DNA from: Escherichia phage AidaStucki_Bas93
Length of the DNA: 64,000 bases
Sequence record: PQ850593.1
Strand: one strand, 5' to 3'
Positions within the stretch are counted from its first letter, which is position 1. Each line of letters opens with the position of its first letter. Position numbers and translations under genes: made by a program. The notes under the pieces were generated by a model. That model had not been told where the DNA came from. It ran no database searches and was given only the letters and a program-made list of their open reading frames with translations. Positions 6,830 through 42,869 of this stretch are shown piece by piece.

Positions 6830-6857
6830 CGTTTTAAGACCTATACAAGCCAGCGTG

Positions 6858-7661: not shown

Positions 7662-10220
7662 ATGATCGTTTATAATAACCAAGCACCTGATGCAGTGAAT
7701 AACGTTGGGCAGTTTGGTGCTACTGAAGGCTCTATCGGAGCTTACAAGCAAGCGGCAGAATATGCAGCTGATTCTAAGTATTGGTCACTGTTGGCAGAGG
7801 CTAAGTTTGGTACAGTTGATGACTTGATTGCTCAGGTTGAGATTCTATACAAACAAGGTGTTCTATTAAGAGAAGATATTGAAGACTTAAAACAAGACTT
7901 CATTGCACAAGATGCTCGTTTGATGAACCTCATTGCTCAAACTAACGCAGCTGTAGCTGATGCAAATAATGCAGTTGCTCTGATTAATCAGAAACTTGTA
8001 GAAGTTCAGAATCAACTCGACGTTCTGTTGGGAATGTCTGTTGACGTAACTACACTTCCTCCGGGAACTCCGGCTACTGGCTCTTTTAATCCGAACACTG
8101 GTGTAATCTCTCTGGGTATCCCAGAAGGTGATCCCGGAAAGGATGGTTCTGTTACTGACCTATCTGCTGCTCCTACCGGTACACCGGAGCTGGGGGACAT
8201 CGGTTTCTATGTTGACAAAGATGATAACATTGTTCACAAAACAACTCTCGAAGATATTGCAAACCTGATCCCATCTGTTCGTTCTGTTTCAGTTAACGAT
8301 GGCCCTGCGCTTGATGGTGAAGTTGCTCTTACACTCAACAAAGAGACGGTAGGTCTTGGGAACGTTTTGAACGTGGCTCAGTACAGCCGCCAAGAGATTA
8401 ATGATAAGTTTGACAAAACAACTAAAACCTACCAATCGAAAGCCGAAGCTGATGCGGATGCTCAATACCGACAGGTAGGAGAAAAGGTTTTGGTGTGGGA
8501 CTCAACGAAGTATGAATTCTATACTGTTGCAGCGAATAAAACCCTTACTCCGGTTAAAACAGAAGGTCGTATCCTAACTGTTAACTCCCGTGCTCCTGAT
8601 TCAACTGGTAACATCGATATCGTAATCCCAACAGGAAACCCATCTTTGTATTTAGGGGAGATGGTAATGTTCCCTTATGACCCAGCTAAAGCTGTCTCCT
8701 ATCCGGGCATTCTTCCTGCGGACGGTCGTTTGGTGTCAAAAGAATCTGCTTTGGATTTAGGCCCATCCCTTATCAGTGGACAACTCCCTGTTGTTTCTGA
8801 AACAGAGTGGCAAGCTGGTGCTAAGCAGTATTTCTCTTGGGGTAAATTAGCCGATGGCATCACTGATGCAGATTCTACTAACTATATCAATATCCGTCTT
8901 CCTGATTGGACAGGCGGTGAGGCTATTCGATCCCCTGATTCTGTAAAAGATAGTGCATATAAAGGTAATGTTCAAAGTCAGGTCCCTTATGTAGTCACTG
9001 TAAATAACCAAGCTCCTGATGAGATTACAGGTAACGTCAATATCTCCAGATCTATCTTAGGTGCTGCTGCTGCTGGTGCAAACTCTGATATAACATCTCT
9101 CGCAGGGCTTACAACAGCGCTTTCTGTCACTCAGGGTGGAACAGGTGCAAAGAATTCCAATGATGCTAAGGTAAATTTAGATTTAGACAGAATAGAGCAA
9201 GGTTCTGGAGAGACTAAGATCCTATCTCCAAATAAAGAAACCTACATGTTTGTTGATAATGACGGGTGGGGTTGTTACCGTACCACGGCTGGGTTGGTCG
9301 GTACTGTAGCTTTGTCAGTTGAGAGAGGGGGCACTGGAGCAACAGATGTTGCTAGTGCAAGAGATAATCTAGGACTTAAATCTCTTTCTACATTAGATAT
9401 TGTTCCAGTAACAAAAGGTGGTACAGGTGCTAGTGATGCTGCCGGTGCAAGGTTTAATTTGGGGTTGGGAAATGTTTCTACTCTGGACAACGTACCAATC
9501 GCTAGTGGTGGTACAGGTGCTAGTGATGCTGCCGGTGCCCGAAGCAACCTCGGAGCGCTGAGTAACACTCCAGCAAACACAGGTGCAGGTAATACTGGTG
9601 CGCGAGTCCAACATGCCACCGGAAGAGGTCTGTTTACTTTAGACATGTTTAACTGCTACTGGTATATGCAGCCAGAGGATACTAACTTCTGGGTTGCCCA
9701 CGGTGTGTCATATGCAGGGCCTAATGGCGAAGCCTCAGAGTATGGTCGTATATCTTACGCAATAAAGATTGCAGATGGAACAACAAAATATGTCCATTGT
9801 CTTACAAACAAAAACACCATCATTGATACAGGCGGATTTATCAAAGCGGCATCTCCGGTAGTTAACATTTATGCCAACGGTCGGTATGAAACGAACGATG
9901 AGTCTGAGGGGGTTAGTGTCATCCGGCAGGGTATTGGTGAATATCTGATTACCGGTTGCCTCGGTCTTAACTCTGATGCAAGATGGGGTGGGGTGGATGG
10001 GGGGTTTGAAATCCCAACAGATCGCAACAAGCAACCTAGGATTTGGCTGGACTATGAGGTTAAAGAAGATGGTTCTATTTTAGTTAAAACCTATCACAGA
10101 ACTCACCCAACCTCTCCAGTTTTTGCTAGAAACGAGATAGAAGGTTTTTCTGATGGGGACCCTATTGATATTCCAAGTGATGCTTTTATCTCAGTTCGTG
10201 TAGAGATGCCAGCTGAGTAA
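7662..10220 (+). CDS. tail fiber protein
   Basis: 852 aa. N-terminal coiled coil, then four tandem GGTGA(x)nAR(x)NLGL repeats (aa about 495-640) typical of phage fibers. Confidence 0.7.
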   Translation: MIVYNNQAPDAVNNVGQFGATEGSIGAYKQAAEYAADSKYWSLLAEAKFGTVDDLIAQVEILYKQGVLLREDIEDLKQDFIAQDARLMNLIAQTNAAVADANNAVALINQKLVEVQNQLDVLLGMSVDVTTLPPGTPATGSFNPNTGVISLGIPEGDPGKDGSVTDLSAAPTGTPELGDIGFYVDKDDNIVHKTTLEDIANLIPSVRSVSVNDGPALDGEVALTLNKETVGLGNVLNVAQYSRQEINDKFDKTTKTYQSKAEADADAQYRQVGEKVLVWDSTKYEFYTVAANKTLTPVKTEGRILTVNSRAPDSTGNIDIVIPTGNPSLYLGEMVMFPYDPAKAVSYPGILPADGRLVSKESALDLGPSLISGQLPVVSETEWQAGAKQYFSWGKLADGITDADSTNYINIRLPDWTGGEAIRSPDSVKDSAYKGNVQSQVPYVVTVNNQAPDEITGNVNISRSILGAAAAGANSDITSLAGLTTALSVTQGGTGAKNSNDAKVNLDLDRIEQGSGETKILSPNKETYMFVDNDGWGCYRTTAGLVGTVALSVERGGTGATDVASARDNLGLKSLSTLDIVPVTKGGTGASDAAGARFNLGLGNVSTLDNVPIASGGTGASDAAGARSNLGALSNTPANTGAGNTGARVQHATGRGLFTLDMFNCYWYMQPEDTNFWVAHGVSYAGPNGEASEYGRISYAIKIADGTTKYVHCLTNKNTIIDTGGFIKAASPVVNIYANGRYETNDESEGVSVIRQGIGEYLITGCLGLNSDARWGGVDGGFEIPTDRNKQPRIWLDYEVKEDGSILVKTYHRTHPTSPVFARNEIEGFSDGDPIDIPSDAFISVRVEMPAE
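9417..9538 (+). repeat. 32-bp perfect direct repeat inside the tail fiber gene (9417-9448 and 9507-9538, 90-bp period)
   Basis: ggtggtacaggtgctagtgatgctgccggtgc occurs twice and encodes the GGTGASDAAGA repeat units. Confidence 0.9.
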
Positions 10221-22266: not shown

Positions 22267-23922
22267 ATGCAACAGACAACTTACGCTCAGGTCAGAAGTC
22301 GTGACCCGAGAAATACTTTCTATGGTGTTAATCCGGGAGCGGCTTCGGCCTCTCCTTATATGGCTAGACCTATTCAGACAGCAGATGTTTCTATGTACCG
22401 ACGTCCTTCTGTACCTCCATCTCTCGCAGGTCTTATCTCTCAGGCAGAAGAAGATCAGAATGCTATGGTGAATCCGGGATTCCAGCAACGTCTTATGGAA
22501 CAACAGAATCGAGGAACCCCAACAAGTCTTCAGGGTATTGATATTGGAGCACCAGCCCCTGTAGCAGCTAATCCTAATTTATCCACTGATCAGGGTTTAC
22601 AAGATGCTGGACTTATGCCTAGCGACCCTCTTCCGGTAACGCCTCCTACTAAACCGCTAGAAGATGGCCCTATGGAGTTTACTCCTTCTCAAGTGGAACA
22701 GGCACAAGGTGTTGTTACTACTCTTGCTCAAGGTCAGGACACTGGAGACGGAATGGCTGGGGCTACTCGTATTAAAGATCAGGAACGTGTTAATAATGAT
22801 ATCATGCAAATTGCTAAAGCTAAAGACCCTTCCGAAGCTTGGAATAAACTACAGAAAGAACCTTTCTATCAGAATTCCAGTTTCTATACAGGTTTGATGG
22901 GTGTAGGTCTTTCTATCATGTCAGGTAAATCTCCTATCGAAGCATTCCAAATTGGTCAGGGAATGGCTAATCAAGATGAGACTAAGAAGCAACTAGAAGC
23001 TAACCGTGATGCTCTGATTGAACAAGGTTTCTCTCAAGATTCAATTGCAGCTGCTATTGCTAACGGAGATCCATCTCTTCTGAAGATGAAAGCTGTAGAC
23101 CCTGCTCAGAAAGAAGCGTTGTATGCTGCTCGTGAAGAACGACAGAATGCTGAATGGGACAGACGTCAACAGATTCAAGAGCAGACTATGCGTGAGCGTG
23201 CTGAGGAAACTCGTCGTGCCGCTGAAGAAAGGGCTAATATGAACTTTGAACGTCAGAAAGAGTTGATTGGATATCGTGATCAAGTTAAGGCTGAACGTGC
23301 CGAACAAGCTGCTCAGAGTTTTAACTTTAACCCGAAAGAAGTTCGTCTTGCTCAGAATACAGCTGAAGGTACGGTTGCTAAGCAGTGGGCAGAGAAAGGT
23401 GGCCTGTTTAACCAGTCTAACAAAGACTTGGATTTGGCTGACAAAGCAGTTAAAGATAAAGATTATCAGACAGCTCGTTCTGCTTACATGCAGGCTATTA
23501 TGAACTCCGCAAGGGCTGAAATCGGTGCTACTCGTTCTCTTACCGAAGAAGACTTGGGGCACTTTGCAGAAGACCCATCAATCTTCATTCGTGTTGGCAA
23601 CAAGTTTGCACTGAAATCTGGATGGCGTCCTACTGATTCTGCTCTTGCTTATGCTCGTAAGCAAGCTAACGTTGGTCACACCTCTGCAATGAAAGGTGTT
23701 GCTGATGCTAAGAGAGCTACGATTGAAGCTTACATCGGTTCTGGTATGGATAAGAAGAGAGCTACTGCATTGGTTAACCGTGCAATCCCTTCTGGCGGTT
23801 TCTATGATCCTCTCGGTGTTTTCTCTGAGGAAGCAGAAGAGGCAGTTGGTGGTGCAGCAACCAATCCTAAACTGAATGGTGCTTTATCAGCTGTTGAAGA
23901 CACTAGCTGGTTCACTGAGTAA
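22267..23922 (+). CDS. internal virion/ejection protein (putative)
   Basis: 551 aa. Assigned by position within the internal-protein block. Charged helical middle region. Confidence 0.4.
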   Translation: MQQTTYAQVRSRDPRNTFYGVNPGAASASPYMARPIQTADVSMYRRPSVPPSLAGLISQAEEDQNAMVNPGFQQRLMEQQNRGTPTSLQGIDIGAPAPVAANPNLSTDQGLQDAGLMPSDPLPVTPPTKPLEDGPMEFTPSQVEQAQGVVTTLAQGQDTGDGMAGATRIKDQERVNNDIMQIAKAKDPSEAWNKLQKEPFYQNSSFYTGLMGVGLSIMSGKSPIEAFQIGQGMANQDETKKQLEANRDALIEQGFSQDSIAAAIANGDPSLLKMKAVDPAQKEALYAAREERQNAEWDRRQQIQEQTMRERAEETRRAAEERANMNFERQKELIGYRDQVKAERAEQAAQSFNFNPKEVRLAQNTAEGTVAKQWAEKGGLFNQSNKDLDLADKAVKDKDYQTARSAYMQAIMNSARAEIGATRSLTEEDLGHFAEDPSIFIRVGNKFALKSGWRPTDSALAYARKQANVGHTSAMKGVADAKRATIEAYIGSGMDKKRATALVNRAIPSGGFYDPLGVFSEEAEEAVGGAATNPKLNGALSAVEDTSWFTE

Positions 23923-23942
23923 GACCTAAGTCCTGCCTTCCA

Positions 23943-32493: not shown

Positions 32494-32514
32494 AAGCTAT
32501 AACAAGGAGAGTTA

Positions 32515-33261
32515 TCAGAAAGGCGAATCGTTATCGTCTTCATAAGTAGAAGCAGGTTCTTTATCAATCGTAGGGATCGAAGGGGTAGCTTCTTTCTGTT
32601 CTGTTTCAGAAGCACGAGTAATTTCACGACCAGCCAGAGGTATGTTCTTAGCGTCATTAGCTTGAGTAAGCAGGTTGCGCTGGAACGGGAACATCAGTTG
32701 ATAAGATGCTACGTTCTCATCGGTTTCAGCATACGGTTCGAAGAATACCAGAGGACTACGAGCTTCACCAACTGCTGCACGATATTTGGTTGGGATTGGA
32801 GAAATGGTTTTGATGGAGTTTTTAACTTCACCAGCTTTGTTAGTGTAGGAGTTAACCAGAATGTTAACAGGCTGACCTAACAGCACATCCTTAAACCAAG
32901 ACAGATCACCTTTCAGTGCTTGAATGCTTGGGTCAATCATCTTGCAAAGATCAAGGATACCAGAGTTCTTAGCTCGTGGGTTTACATCATAACTCTTGAA
33001 CTGGCAAGCAGGACGTGGTTCTAATGCCTTACCATCGGAATCTTTACCCGTAGCATCAACACCAATCAGCTCGAAAGCCAAATCCATACGGAAAGCTGGA
33101 TTCTTAGGAGTTACTGCTTTGGTCTTCGGGTCAATCCAAGGGTCGCGATTGTGAACACCCAAACCTACTACACGAACAATACGTGCTTCGTATTCACCAT
33201 CAGGGATTACATCGTAGTTAGATTTACGGGAAGAAGTTGCGATAGTTGGAATCATGCTCAT
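32515..33261 (-). CDS. single-stranded DNA-binding protein (T7 gp2.5-like)
   Basis: 248 aa. Acidic C-terminal tip YEDDNDSPF, which is typical of SSB tails. Placed behind a strong promoter and leader. Confidence 0.65.
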   Translation of the reverse strand: MSMIPTIATSSRKSNYDVIPDGEYEARIVRVVGLGVHNRDPWIDPKTKAVTPKNPAFRMDLAFELIGVDATGKDSDGKALEPRPACQFKSYDVNPRAKNSGILDLCKMIDPSIQALKGDLSWFKDVLLGQPVNILVNSYTNKAGEVKNSIKTISPIPTKYRAAVGEARSPLVFFEPYAETDENVASYQLMFPFQRNLLTQANDAKNIPLAGREITRASETEQKEATPSIPTIDKEPASTYEDDNDSPF

Positions 33262-33319
33262 TGTTAATTTCCTTATTTAATTTGAAAGATTGTTGCTCTC
33301 TTTGAGCGGTTATGTATAA

Positions 33320-33328
33320 TATACATTA
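33320..33328 (-). promoter_or_regulatory. TAATGTATA element (phage-sigma-type promoter) driving the SSB operon
   Basis: Exact match on the - strand, about 60 nt upstream of the SSB ATG. Confidence 0.6.
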
Positions 33329-33391
33329 CGCTTATACCGATAAGAGTACTATATAATATAAGTATCTTTGGTAGTAGATATAACACACTAG

Positions 33392-33400
33392 TAATGTATA
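33392..33400 (+). promoter_or_regulatory. TAATGTATA element on the + strand, divergent from 33320-33328
   Basis: Exact match. There is no + strand ORF, and no ATG at all, for about 280 nt downstream. Confidence 0.45.
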
Positions 33401-33407
33401 TATTGTA

Positions 33408-33566
33408 TAGCTGATAAAGTTATTGCAGGCTTGTACATTGGGCAATTCATAGAATCCCTTGCAAGTACCGAAGGGCAGGAGCCACCTGCGAGATAAAAAT
33501 AGAGAATTAAGGAATCCTTGATTTAGGTTGTAGGGACTCCTAGGGACTTTGATTCTCTATTTAAAA
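33408..33566 (+). ncRNA. candidate structured non-coding RNA
   Basis: Lies downstream of the + strand promoter element. Has a long-range 7-bp stem (33423-29 with 33485-91) and an 11-bp stem (33497-33507 with 33552-33562) enclosing a tagggact direct repeat. Contains no ATG. Confidence 0.25.
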
Positions 33567-33681
33567 GAATAAATAATTACTATATCTAATACTAAACAGA
33601 CTGAAACAAAGATAAGAAACTTCTTATAAATACTCATTACTTATCATCTAAATAGTTAACTAATCTCTGATATAAAGAAGT

Positions 33682-33870
33682 TTAAATCAAGCATCCATCA
33701 CAAACATAGTCTCCACTAAGAGACTCTTGTAACAAACGATTTTGTTCCTCTGAATATAGAGAATTTACTAATTCTTTTAACTCTGAAAGAGTGATGAAAT
33801 CAATAGTATTTCCATTATCTAAAATAGAAGAGTTAAGTAAATATTCATTGTCTTTAATTTTATTAATCAT
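33682..33870 (-). CDS. hypothetical protein
   Basis: 62 aa. ATGA-coupled to the upstream small ORF. Confidence 0.45.
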   Translation of the reverse strand: MINKIKDNEYLLNSSILDNGNTIDFITLSELKELVNSLYSEEQNRLLQESLSGDYVCDGCLI

Positions 33871-34007
33871 TCTTCATTTCCTTTTACTTCAGCGTAGACT
33901 TTGATAATGCCCTTAAGAACTTCCTTAGAAGCAATAGCACTTTCTTCAGAGGTGTGAATAGTAGAAAACTCTTTCTTTCCAATCTTGTAAGTGTGAACCC
34001 AAATCAT
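33867..34007 (-). CDS. small hypothetical protein (46 aa)
   Basis: Begins MIWVHTYKIGKKEF. Both start and stop are coupled to neighbouring genes. Confidence 0.35.
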   Translation of the reverse strand: MIWVHTYKIGKKEFSTIHTSEESAIASKEVLKGIIKVYAEVKGNEE

Positions 34008-34009
34008 AC

Positions 34010-34171
34010 TTATTCCTCGTATTCCCAATTTCTTTCATAATATCCAGAGTTATAATTTAGAGCGCATCTCTCAGCCTCCTCTATGTCATCAGTGTTTAGG
34101 ATATTTACCCACCCACCAACTTCATCAAAACCTTCTTCTACTTCATTAAACCATACGCTATACTTTTTCAT
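34010..34171 (-). CDS. small hypothetical protein (53 aa)
   Basis: Begins MKKYSVWFNEVEEGFDEVGGW. ATGA overlap with the upstream gene. Confidence 0.35.
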   Translation of the reverse strand: MKKYSVWFNEVEEGFDEVGGWVNILNTDDIEEAERCALNYNSGYYERNWEYEE

Positions 34172-34560
34172 CGAATCACCAAAGGCTCTTCAGAGTACAC
34201 AGGAGCGGCTATTTCTACAGGAGGTGCTGCCCTAAGGTCATTAAGTCTTACGCCCTTCAGCATTCCATCTAGGTGGTCCTTTTTGGGTATTCCAACAGGG
34301 AAGTCGTCAATCCAGATATCTACAAAGAAACCTAACTGGCGACATACGTCATCTTTCTGAACACCATTGCAAAAGATGATAGGAATCTGCAAACGCTCTG
34401 CATCAATCTTAATGTCGTGATTATCATACCCATTAGGCTCTGCAAAGCGGTAAGTTACAAAACGTACATCATAACCTTTGGCTTGCATTAATGCCACCAC
34501 AGATCGCCACAGCTCTTTATCTGAGGTGTAAGTATCATCGTAATCTAAACCAATATTCAT
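34168..34560 (-). CDS. HAD-like phosphatase / nucleotidase (putative)
   Basis: 130 aa. N-terminal IGLDYDDT resembles HAD motif I (DxD). SD aaagga. Confidence 0.4.
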   Translation of the reverse strand: MNIGLDYDDTYTSDKELWRSVVALMQAKGYDVRFVTYRFAEPNGYDNHDIKIDAERLQIPIIFCNGVQKDDVCRQLGFFVDIWIDDFPVGIPKKDHLDGMLKGVRLNDLRAAPPVEIAAPVYSEEPLVIR

Positions 34561-36360: not shown

Positions 36361-37711
36361 AGATAAACGTTTTAGCGTTGTCACGAGTAGGAAGACCAGC
36401 AAGTTTCTGGTTGTGGGAGTGGATATCACCTTCAAGAAGGATATCACGATACATAATAGCAGAAGCTAAACCACGTTCTGCCAGAGCTTTCTTAGCTGGA
36501 TTATTCTCTTCGATTGCTTCAGCAAGCATATCCCTACACTCTTTAATGAGGTAGTGAGCGAGCATACGAAGTTCAAGTCCAGAACCATCATACCCTAAGA
36601 ATACTTCTTTACCAGCGGGTATGTAATATTTGTAAGCACCTACAGGCTTATCTTTCTTCCCCGGCTTACCTTTCTCGTAAATTACGTTAGTACCTTTTCG
36701 TATATAACAACCATCAGGAACAACGTTAGTAATAACGAAAGGACGAGAGTGATCACTGTCTGAATTATAGTCAGACTCAAACAAACTGCGACACTCATGA
36801 CCAAACAAACCACGAGAGGGAATATTAACCACGATACGATGTTTGAATCGAAAAGTTGGCGTAGCGCAGCTGTTAGCTTCTGCCGAAAGTTTACCATCTT
36901 CGCGTTCCTTTGCTATGAGTCCACTGATAAGACCTAGCCTGTGAGCCGCTACAACGCGCCTCTTAAGCAAACTTCCAACACTCCCTAGCTCGCCCCCTAA
37001 CCCTTCTTCAAGAGTCTCCTCGAGGTTTGTAGGAGCTGTAGGCCACTTGTTTGAGGTAGCTAGTGCTATCTTAATCTCATCAAACGTGATAGGTCTACGT
37101 CGGTTAGGGTTTAAACCTAAACCAAACACATAAGCCTTCATATAGTTCTTAGTCTTAAACCTAAAATGCTTCTCTAAGAACCTCCTAATATCTGCGTCAA
37201 CCATCTCGGCTGTCTGCTTCTGTTTAGCATTACCTCGCATCCAAGCTGAATACCACGCTTGGTATGTTCCATACTTTCGTATATCTTTCTTGATTTCAAA
37301 AGTATTCCAAGGTTTCTTTGATACGTTAAACTCTGGAGGAAGAAAACCCTCATCCATAAGGGCTTCTTTAACTCGTGCATCTTTCGATGGGTCAAAGTCC
37401 ACGTATTCAACACAGGTGAATGCTCCACCAATGTCTTCTCTCTTAAGGCCAACTCTATCACAATAGGCTTGAGGCCACTTCTGTAAAGCTCCAGACTTCT
37501 TAAATGGCTTCATATAAGTAGAGCCATCTAATCTCATCTTAGGTAAGAGAGGGATCAGTTCTTTGTCGATATTAACAATAATCTCTTTAAGGAGGTGAAC
37601 ATACCACCGAGCATTTCTTCGGTTGAAACTCACTCCGTGCTTCGCTTGCTTAGAGATTATATCAGCGACAGTCATCTCTGTCAAAAATGGGAGAGCGTCC
37701 GGGTTGCTCAC
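36361..37711 (-). CDS. DNA polymerase (family A, T7 gp5-like), exon 1
   Basis: GTG start after aaggag. Ends ...LAGLPTRDNAKTFI, the first half of the O-helix/motif B, followed immediately by TGA. Confidence 0.85.
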
Positions 37712-42797: not shown

Positions 42798-42836
42798 AAC
42801 TCTCTCCTGTAAAATACAAACTCTTATTGTACTCTA

Positions 42837-42845
42837 TATACATTT
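42837..42845 (-). promoter_or_regulatory. AAATGTATA element (one-mismatch variant of the phage-sigma-type promoter)
   Basis: - strand, about 40 nt upstream of the ATG at 42797. Confidence 0.5.
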
Positions 42846-42869
42846 GAGAGTTACCATATCTACTACCAA

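Follow-up and report, generated by a model that had tools for sequence, protein, structure and literature searches.

The non-coding gap upstream of the gene 40 homologue of this phiEco32-like phage carries, besides the known promoter of that gene, a rightward copy of the phage-sigma promoter motif which, judged by its exact -10 element, its P68-identical -35 region and its conservation among relatives, is very likely a genuine gp36 promoter, apparently unreported and the seventh of the set. This promoter, here called P(+), points against every neighbouring gene and faces a conserved region that is non-coding, and a phage-sigma-dependent non-coding RNA, as put forward in the original prediction, is the best reading of the arrangement. 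That a functional non-coding RNA is made from P(+) appears to us somewhat better than an even bet, an estimate in which we infer both transcription from P(+) and the end point of the RNA from sequence. The overall explanation, in which P(+) would make a non-coding RNA acting as an OOP-type cis-antisense RNA, has slightly less than an even chance, and the cis-antisense mechanism specifically, which we infer, is a good deal more tentative.

The window (the whole 64-kb stretch of DNA that was analysed) comes from a Kuravirus coliphage of the phiEco32/LAMP-like kind. Positions 33100-33900 are 98.8% identical to Escherichia phages LAMP, Bas92 and Bas94, and positions 33100-33585 are 96.7% identical to phiEco32, whose homology ends at about 33585. 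Homology assigns the minus strand ORF at 32515-33261 to phiEco32 gene 40. Rightward of 33682 lie counterparts of phiEco32 genes 41-57 or genes inserted among them; in the published scheme, gene 40 and the genes from 41 on belong to the middle cluster (PMC4281155, PMC8948821). The genes from 33682 onward had been taken to be early, and by homology to the 41-57 block they are middle genes instead. The gene 40 product had been named SSB, a name that agrees with the annotation as a single-stranded DNA-binding protein in two GenBank records only; it has no Pfam or PDB match, and its PHROGs label is 'unknown function'. The 420-nt gap at 33262-33681, which is 70% AT, is the largest ORF-free stretch of the window, adjoins gene 40 and lies a few kb from the DNA polymerase gene. 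That gene is annotated in LAMP as two joined pieces across ~36.3-38.6 kb, and in the same region of the window we noticed a promoter that matches the sigma-70 consensus at 12/12 positions and has an extended -10 TG (37656-37684, minus strand), which may be the mark of an inserted element splitting the polymerase gene.

phiEco32 is a model system for the reprogramming of E. coli RNA polymerase by gp36 and its co-factor gp79. The -10 consensus of gp36 is tAATGTAtA, with AATGTA at -14 to -9 (PMC8948821, PMC12276001), and in the 2025 cryo-EM structure of the gp36/gp79 open complex on P68 the motif is numbered -14A, -13A, -12T, -11G (PMC12276001). The C-terminal domain of gp36 reads -37G and the T opposite -34A, and mutating these abolishes transcription (PMC12276001). 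The sequence TAATGTATA has five exact copies in the window against 0.66 expected, a number reached in none of 100 shuffles. Four of them are published gp36 promoters, namely P13 and P26 on the plus strand and P40 and P58 on the minus strand, while the homologue of P68 is a one-mismatch site (AAATGTATA, 42837-42845, minus strand) that matches the SU10 P68 sequence (Table S2, PMC4281155). P40 is on the published promoter lists for phiEco32 and relatives (PMC4281155, PMC4331800). The remaining copy, at 33392-33400 on the plus strand, is absent from the list of six gp36 promoters given in the accessible literature. Each of the six listed promoters stands in front of genes in sense orientation (PMC8948821, PMC4281155, PMC4331800), and one published promoter search took in the gene-sense strand of intergenic regions only (PMC4331800).

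P(+) is of the same sub-class as the middle promoter P68. Its -35 14-mer, TTGGTAGTAGATAT, is identical to that of the P68-like site (42856-42869, minus strand), and so is the spacing: at both sites exactly 10 bases, unrelated between the two, separate TTGGTAGTAGATAT from (T/A)AATGTATATA. An A at -34 is common to all five exact sites of the window, while a G at -37 is found in P68 and P(+) only. At its predicted +1 position P(+) has an A that is conserved. The two late gp36 promoters of the window, P13-like (6835-6843) and P26-like (23920-23928), both on the plus strand, share a different box, TAAGACCTA, at -38 to -30, which suggests a late-class -35 region distinct from that of the P68/P(+) class. 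This 9-mer is also found in the DNA-polymerase region at 36928 (plus), 37798 (plus) and 39758 (minus), there with no AATGTA downstream, making five copies in the window against a roughly estimated 0.5 expected. The coordinates of all features are collected in Table 1.

Table 1. Coordinates of the promoter elements, the candidate RNA and the surrounding features in the window.
Feature	Position	Strand	Details
P40, known middle promoter of gene 40 (32515-33261)	33313-33328	-	-10 TAATGTATA at 33320-33328; predicted start ~33313
P(+) -35 region TTGGTAGTAGATAT	33368-33381	+	G33370 = -37, A33373 = -34
P(+) spacer, 10 nt	33382-33391	+	length fixed, sequence free
P(+) -10 element TAATGTATA(TA)	33392-33402	+	exact match to the gp36 consensus tAATGTAtA
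P(+) predicted start A33407 and 5' hairpin	33407-33423	+	start from the numbering of PMC12276001
Middle domain, possible closing helix UUGCAGG/CCUGCGA around a variable arm	33423-33491	+	ttgcagg 33423-29, cctgcga 33485-91
Near-invariant 99-nt core	33468-33566	.	diversity 0.029
T-run TTTTTAT (ATAAAAA on plus) after the long hairpin	33491-33497	-	invariant in all aligned relatives
Long hairpin, 11-bp perfect inverted repeat enclosing 44 conserved nt	33497-33562	.	arms 33497-33507 and 33552-33562
Direct repeat TAGGGACT-CC-TAGGGACT	33531-33548	.	copies at 33531 and 33541, spacing 10
AT-rich (78%) non-coding spacer	33567-33681	.	not conserved in phiEco32-type relatives
P68-like middle promoter, class reference	42837-42869	-	TTGGTAGTAGATAT-N10-AAATGTATA

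Conservation of P(+) was assessed in 22 related phage genomes plus metagenome and virome contigs, which together give 29 distinct sequences with the window included; nucleotide diversities refer to a 23-genome alignment. The TGGTAGTA box of the -35 region is invariant in all 29 sequences and the length of the spacer is the same in all 29, and the -10 element TAATGTATA is intact in 28, the exception being a metagenome contig (L077) that has TAATATATA. Nucleotide diversity is 0.000 in the -10 element, 0.53 in the spacer, the highest value of the region, and 0.33 between the divergent promoters. Even a 117-nt insertion that takes the place of the DNA on their left (loci L003, L025 and L026, of the ES17/myPSH2311 type) leaves the boxes in place. 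Fixed boxes at a fixed distance, with free sequence between them, are the footprint of a bipartite promoter read on the plus strand, and the conservation in relatives on which the original prediction had staked this motif is thus borne out. That the motif is instead a functionless chance 9-mer next to P40 is very improbable: the region is AT-rich and P40 itself lies in a palindrome, but chance would have to account for a P68-identical -35 14-mer at the P68 spacing and for a -10 element of zero diversity beside a spacer of 0.53, across 29 genomes. The P40 palindrome is near-perfect, spans 33309-33329 (GTTATGTATA / TATACATTAC) and yields a one-mismatch plus strand copy of the motif, TTATGTATA, at 33310-33318; it is lost in the Suseptimavirus-type relatives (GGTTTGTATACTATATACATTA).

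The exceptional contig (ERZ1034915 NODE-75, 68 kb; variant at locus positions ~8930-8945) carries a G to A change that removes -11G, a gp36 contact, but has a perfect sigma-70 TATAAT, the rest of the element being intact; a perfect sigma-70 TATAAT is also present in TATAATGTATA of its ES17-type relatives. Since the core is intact where this contact is lost, P(+) may be dispensable. The 117-nt insertion between the divergent promoters was found in 12 phage records (ES17, myPSH2311, myPSH1131, SDYTW1, EcK-vB and others; loci L003, L025, L026, L077, L086, L090 and L100), which have the type B middle arm described below. A CUACC-GGAA-GGUAG hairpin within the insertion resembles the CTACCGGAAGG with which the type B core starts. 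Three distant virome contigs, which came from a locus search based on gp40 and have gp40 homologues of 68-70% protein identity, have neither the element nor the AATGTA motif. The equivalent place in these contigs, ~60-115 nt ahead of the gp40 homologue, is taken by an invariant ~57-nt stretch of unrelated sequence (GGAAGCATCTAGCAAAGCTAGCATATCAAAGCTAAGCTAAGCTATATGCTTTATCC) that the three share and that has hairpins inside it. The 7-11-like Salmonella phage SeKF_80 has a gap of 100 nt only, with a single sense promoter of its own type, and scans of viral and metagenome contigs for divergent copies returned only copies at least 88% identical plus chance matches of 15-19 nt. Among the sequences compared, only the E. 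coli phiEco32 subgroup has the element.

Downstream of P(+) the plus strand has no ATG from 33401 to 33793 (the first is at 33794), an even longer stretch than the ~280 nt originally noticed, and no ORF in any frame. The helices and repeats that had been described there are all present, including the ttgcagg/cctgcga pair, the 11-bp stem, the tagggact repeat and the minus strand T-run, as are both promoter copies. A hairpin, AUAGCU-GAUAA-AGUUAU, begins at the predicted +1/+2 of P(+), and among relatives its stem occurs in compensatory variants, namely AGCU/AGCU, AGAU/UUCU, AGUU/AACU and GAGUUA/UAACUC. Two of its pairs show changes on both sides (one as CG, AU and UA, the other as UA and GC). 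Another alternates between G-C and G-U, with G-U in 5 of 16 sequences, and since G-U pairs become A-C mismatches on the opposite strand, these fit the plus strand only. Altogether 97.5% of cells in the alignment are paired; sliding the partner brings this down to 23-59%, and the covariation score was reached by none of 500 shuffles. A small 5' hairpin, ACAA-UAAGAGU-UUGU, can also be read at the start of the P68-like transcript (start region 42820-42836, minus strand), and 5'-terminal hairpins may, to judge from these two sequences, be a general feature of gp36 transcripts.

The middle of the candidate RNA is an arm that exists in two unrelated forms between identical conserved flanks. The window has type A, in which substitutions fall within the predicted loop of a small hairpin; type B, a different 64-nt insert, is found in ECBP2, MN05, ES17-like phages and others, and shows one U-A to C-G exchange that preserves a helix. 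The closing helix proposed around the arm had no informative substitutions among the relatives, and it competes with a local hairpin, GCAGG-AGCCA-CCUGC (33477-33491), in whose loop the sole variable base of that stretch (C/A at 33481) is located.

The 99-nt core that follows varies less than even the second codon positions of the neighbouring gene 40: its diversity is 0.029, against 0.051 at the second positions of that gene and 0.266 at its third. Being almost invariant, the core shows no covariation by which a fold could be supported or refuted. The few changes that occur suit pairing on the plus strand (an insertion into the loop of AAGG-AAU-CCUU, and in XT32 an A replaced by G, giving a G-U pair), but the minus strand is the better one for an inner 8-bp helix that includes a G-U pair. 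Both TAGGGACT copies are shortened together to AGGACT, at a spacing of 9, in ECBP2, Paul, XT32, Bas87, EK010, TH34, Bas88 and L101; these eight genomes also share a right-flank type, so that they may represent one haplotype spread by recombination. The long and short repeat forms have a mosaic distribution among lineages, and synteny is broken on both sides of the core. Taken alone, two 8-bp repeats are within chance. The fold energy has a z of -2.07 on the plus and -2.28 on the minus strand, with 5 of 200 shuffles as good on each. The region had been called highly structured, and this holds insofar as folding is modestly above chance (z ~-2) and the 5' hairpin covaries, but the excess is equal on both strands and the invariant core is uninformative. 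The GC skew of 33407-33566 is +0.19, within the top 1.3% of windows in the region of minus strand genes, and such a G-rich skew fits a plus strand product.

The 11-bp inverted repeat of the long hairpin is extended by a repeat search to 14 nt at 93% complementarity, and its stem can be lengthened to 16 bp via two G-U pairs on the plus strand only. On this strand the hairpin is followed by TTT and then AAAA, with only TT in 8 of the 29 sequences, so that it is at best a weak stop for a plus strand RNA; no good plus strand terminator was found within 9 kb downstream of it. Given both the weak T-run and the lack of a later terminator over that distance, a discrete 160-nt RNA is not assured. On the minus strand the T-run is present and invariant, and in the relatives with the gene annotated the hairpin lies ~10 to 115 nt past the stop codon of the preceding minus strand gene, whichever gene that is: the stop codon of gene 41 is ~10 nt away in phiEco32, and in the window there is a gap of 115 nt to the CDS and no overlap with it. 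From these features the upstream middle operon (phiEco32 genes 57-41) probably ends at the hairpin with its minus strand T-run. The stem had indeed been proposed to terminate the upstream operon, which is plausible from hairpin and T-run, although the operon in question is middle and not early. As a terminator the hairpin is unusual in its A-U rich stem and 44-nt interior; it was not called by a consensus terminator scan, for which its loop is too long, and it is not included in the SU10 terminator list made with FindTerm (PMC4281155).

The same observations raise the question whether the core is mainly an element of the minus strand or of the DNA itself, that is, a terminator, 3'-end stabiliser, RNase III site and/or protein-binding recombination linker, with P(+) acting by transcriptional interference or insulation and its RNA having no function of its own. 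The minus strand T-run is invariant while the plus strand run decays, the hairpin always follows a stop codon, the inner 8-bp helix favours the minus strand, the breaks of synteny and the mosaic of repeat forms flank or involve the core, and the L077 promoter variant retains the core intact. We nevertheless regard this explanation as unlikely, if the least so of the alternatives. A terminator has no need of 44 invariant interior bases, the A-U rich stem escapes both the consensus scan and FindTerm in SU10, and a covarying hairpin placed exactly at +1/+2 of P(+), with G-U pairs that fit only the plus strand, is left unexplained.

Slightly less probable still, though a serious rival, is a transcription-activated replication origin. 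On this reading a non-coding transcript made in the gap from the gp36 promoter would act as primer or form an R-loop, proteins would be loaded at the core and the TAGGGACT repeats, and unwinding would take place in the AT-rich DNA to the right. The gap is the longest ORF-free DNA of the window and the one large non-coding gap that the replication-gene cluster has, next to a gene annotated in two records as coding for a single-stranded DNA-binding protein and a few kb from the polymerase gene; the promoter is of the middle class, active when the replication genes are expressed; primary sequence is conserved to an extreme degree, with two direct repeats one helical turn apart that change in concert; and the RNA strand is G-rich. 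But the AT-rich DNA at 33567-33681 is not conserved: relatives have gene 41 or other DNA there instead, and the hairpin of phiEco32 directly adjoins a coding gene. The 8-bp repeats number no more than two, which is within chance, and a rightward fork would run head-on into the transcription of all middle and early genes. From its covariation, the 5' hairpin suggests an RNA whose structure matters. Cumulative GC skew has no switch at 33.4 kb, its only switch being at ~28.5 kb, but as skew in this genome follows gene orientation this is a weak, largely uninformative test of an origin.

An RNA that acts in trans, with an invariant 3' domain whose partner would be a distant mRNA or a protein of phage or host and not the overlapping transcripts, would agree with core loops as invariant as the stems, with the modular middle arm, and with a 5' hairpin typical of stable RNAs. 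We consider it improbable, and more so than an origin, since the searches for partners returned little. Complementarity to either strand of the window consists of chance-level 10-11-mers only. Among 129 start regions examined with RNAduplex a single one stood out, with -40 kcal/mol where shuffles gave -32 +/- 2.4, and this target was rejected as a 9-bp match padded with G-U pairs at a doubtful start codon. The region has no similarity in 5,426 E. coli genomes, a database of a size at which short seed pairings are invisible, and no Rfam 15 family matches within 33262-33681 on either strand (search of 32500-34500 at E up to 10). The Rfam result also argues against a CRISPR-repeat mimic and a 6S-like RNA. 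The only hit of the same search lay outside the gap, a weak CRISPR-DR50 match at 34021-34063 on the minus strand that is most likely chance (20.9 bits and E = 5, where the gathering score is 47). ARAGORN found no tRNA or tmRNA in the region, and a CsrA-type sponge was dropped on account of four GGA motifs in 160 nt, counted by eye, being near the expectation from composition. A related idea, that the region represents a new clade-restricted family of ~160-nt structured RNAs under a P68-class promoter, with a near-invariant 3' domain that does more than pair as antisense, by binding a phage or host protein or by priming replication, is doubtful though by no means far-fetched.

The mechanism that we favour is an RNA from P(+) that acts on the opposing transcripts in cis, in the manner of lambda OOP. 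Transcription by the gp36 holoenzyme would start at about A33407 from middle times of infection, and the RNA would consist of three parts, namely the 5' hairpin, the exchangeable middle arm and a near-invariant 3' domain ending in the 33497-33562 hairpin, for a length of ~155-160 nt if it does end there. The 5'-terminal hairpin would probably protect it from 5'-end-dependent decay. The hairpin at 33497-33562, read on the minus strand with its T-run, would most likely end the upstream middle operon (genes 57-41). The RNA would be perfectly complementary to the 3' end or the read-through part of any minus strand message that ends in the core or crosses it, and, depending on where those messages end, it could pair with the transcripts that cross the 41/40 junction, leading either to double-strand-specific cleavage or to a block of read-through into the gene 40-36 operon, which holds the sigma gene. 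The particular form of antisense control originally envisaged, a switching-off of early genes at the middle stage, does not fit, because genes 41-57 are middle genes transcribed from P58/P68 by the very same gp36 holoenzyme. With target and antisense RNA made by one holoenzyme at one stage, the regulatory logic is not obvious.

P40 and the motif itself were already known, while the antisense promoter, the -35 class shared with P68 and the conserved RNA candidate are undescribed in the accessible literature; full-text searches on phiEco32 antisense transcription, replication origin and Kuravirus RNA-seq found nothing relevant. If the interpretation is right, the -35 region with G-37 and A-34 seen in the cryo-EM structure would define a conserved promoter sub-class, a non-coding product would be added to the middle programme of the phage, and the region would become a candidate for control of the sigma-gene operon or for the still unmapped replication origin.

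Among systems already described, the closest to P(+) is the P68 promoter of phiEco32 (PMC12276001), with which it has in common TTGGTAGTAGATAT, the 10-nt spacer, the -10 AATGTATATA and a predicted start at an A 7 nt after the motif. It differs in opposing the gene cluster, in having no ORF downstream and in being absent from the list of six, and the unrelated spacer and transcribed sequences of the two show that they are not the result of a recent duplication.

Antisense and other small RNAs made from phage-specific promoters are a known kind of phage product, and the nearest parallel for the candidate RNA is OOP of phage lambda. OOP RNA, 77 nt long, has a promoter of the sigma-70 type and a strong terminator, and it overlaps the end of the cII coding sequence; historically, it has also been discussed as a replication primer. 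Like OOP, the predicted RNA would be short, would have its own promoter within an opposed operon by replication genes and would be complementary to the end of the upstream message, but here the promoter would be of the phage-sigma type, the RNA would be about 160 nt with a weak plus strand terminator, only non-coding DNA would be overlapped in this window, and the case is sequence-based. The primary origin of T7 and oriF and oriG of T4 combine a phage-specific or middle-mode promoter, a possibly non-coding transcript and AT-rich DNA downstream. The window resembles them in its phage-sigma middle promoter, in the AT-rich DNA downstream and in its place in a replication-gene region, and departs from them in that the AT-rich part is not conserved among relatives and has no skew signal. 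Finally, bidirectional intrinsic terminators share with the core the order of A-run, hairpin and T-run at a point where rightward and leftward units meet, yet the hairpin described here has an A-U rich stem, a 44-nt invariant interior and a good T-run on one strand only.
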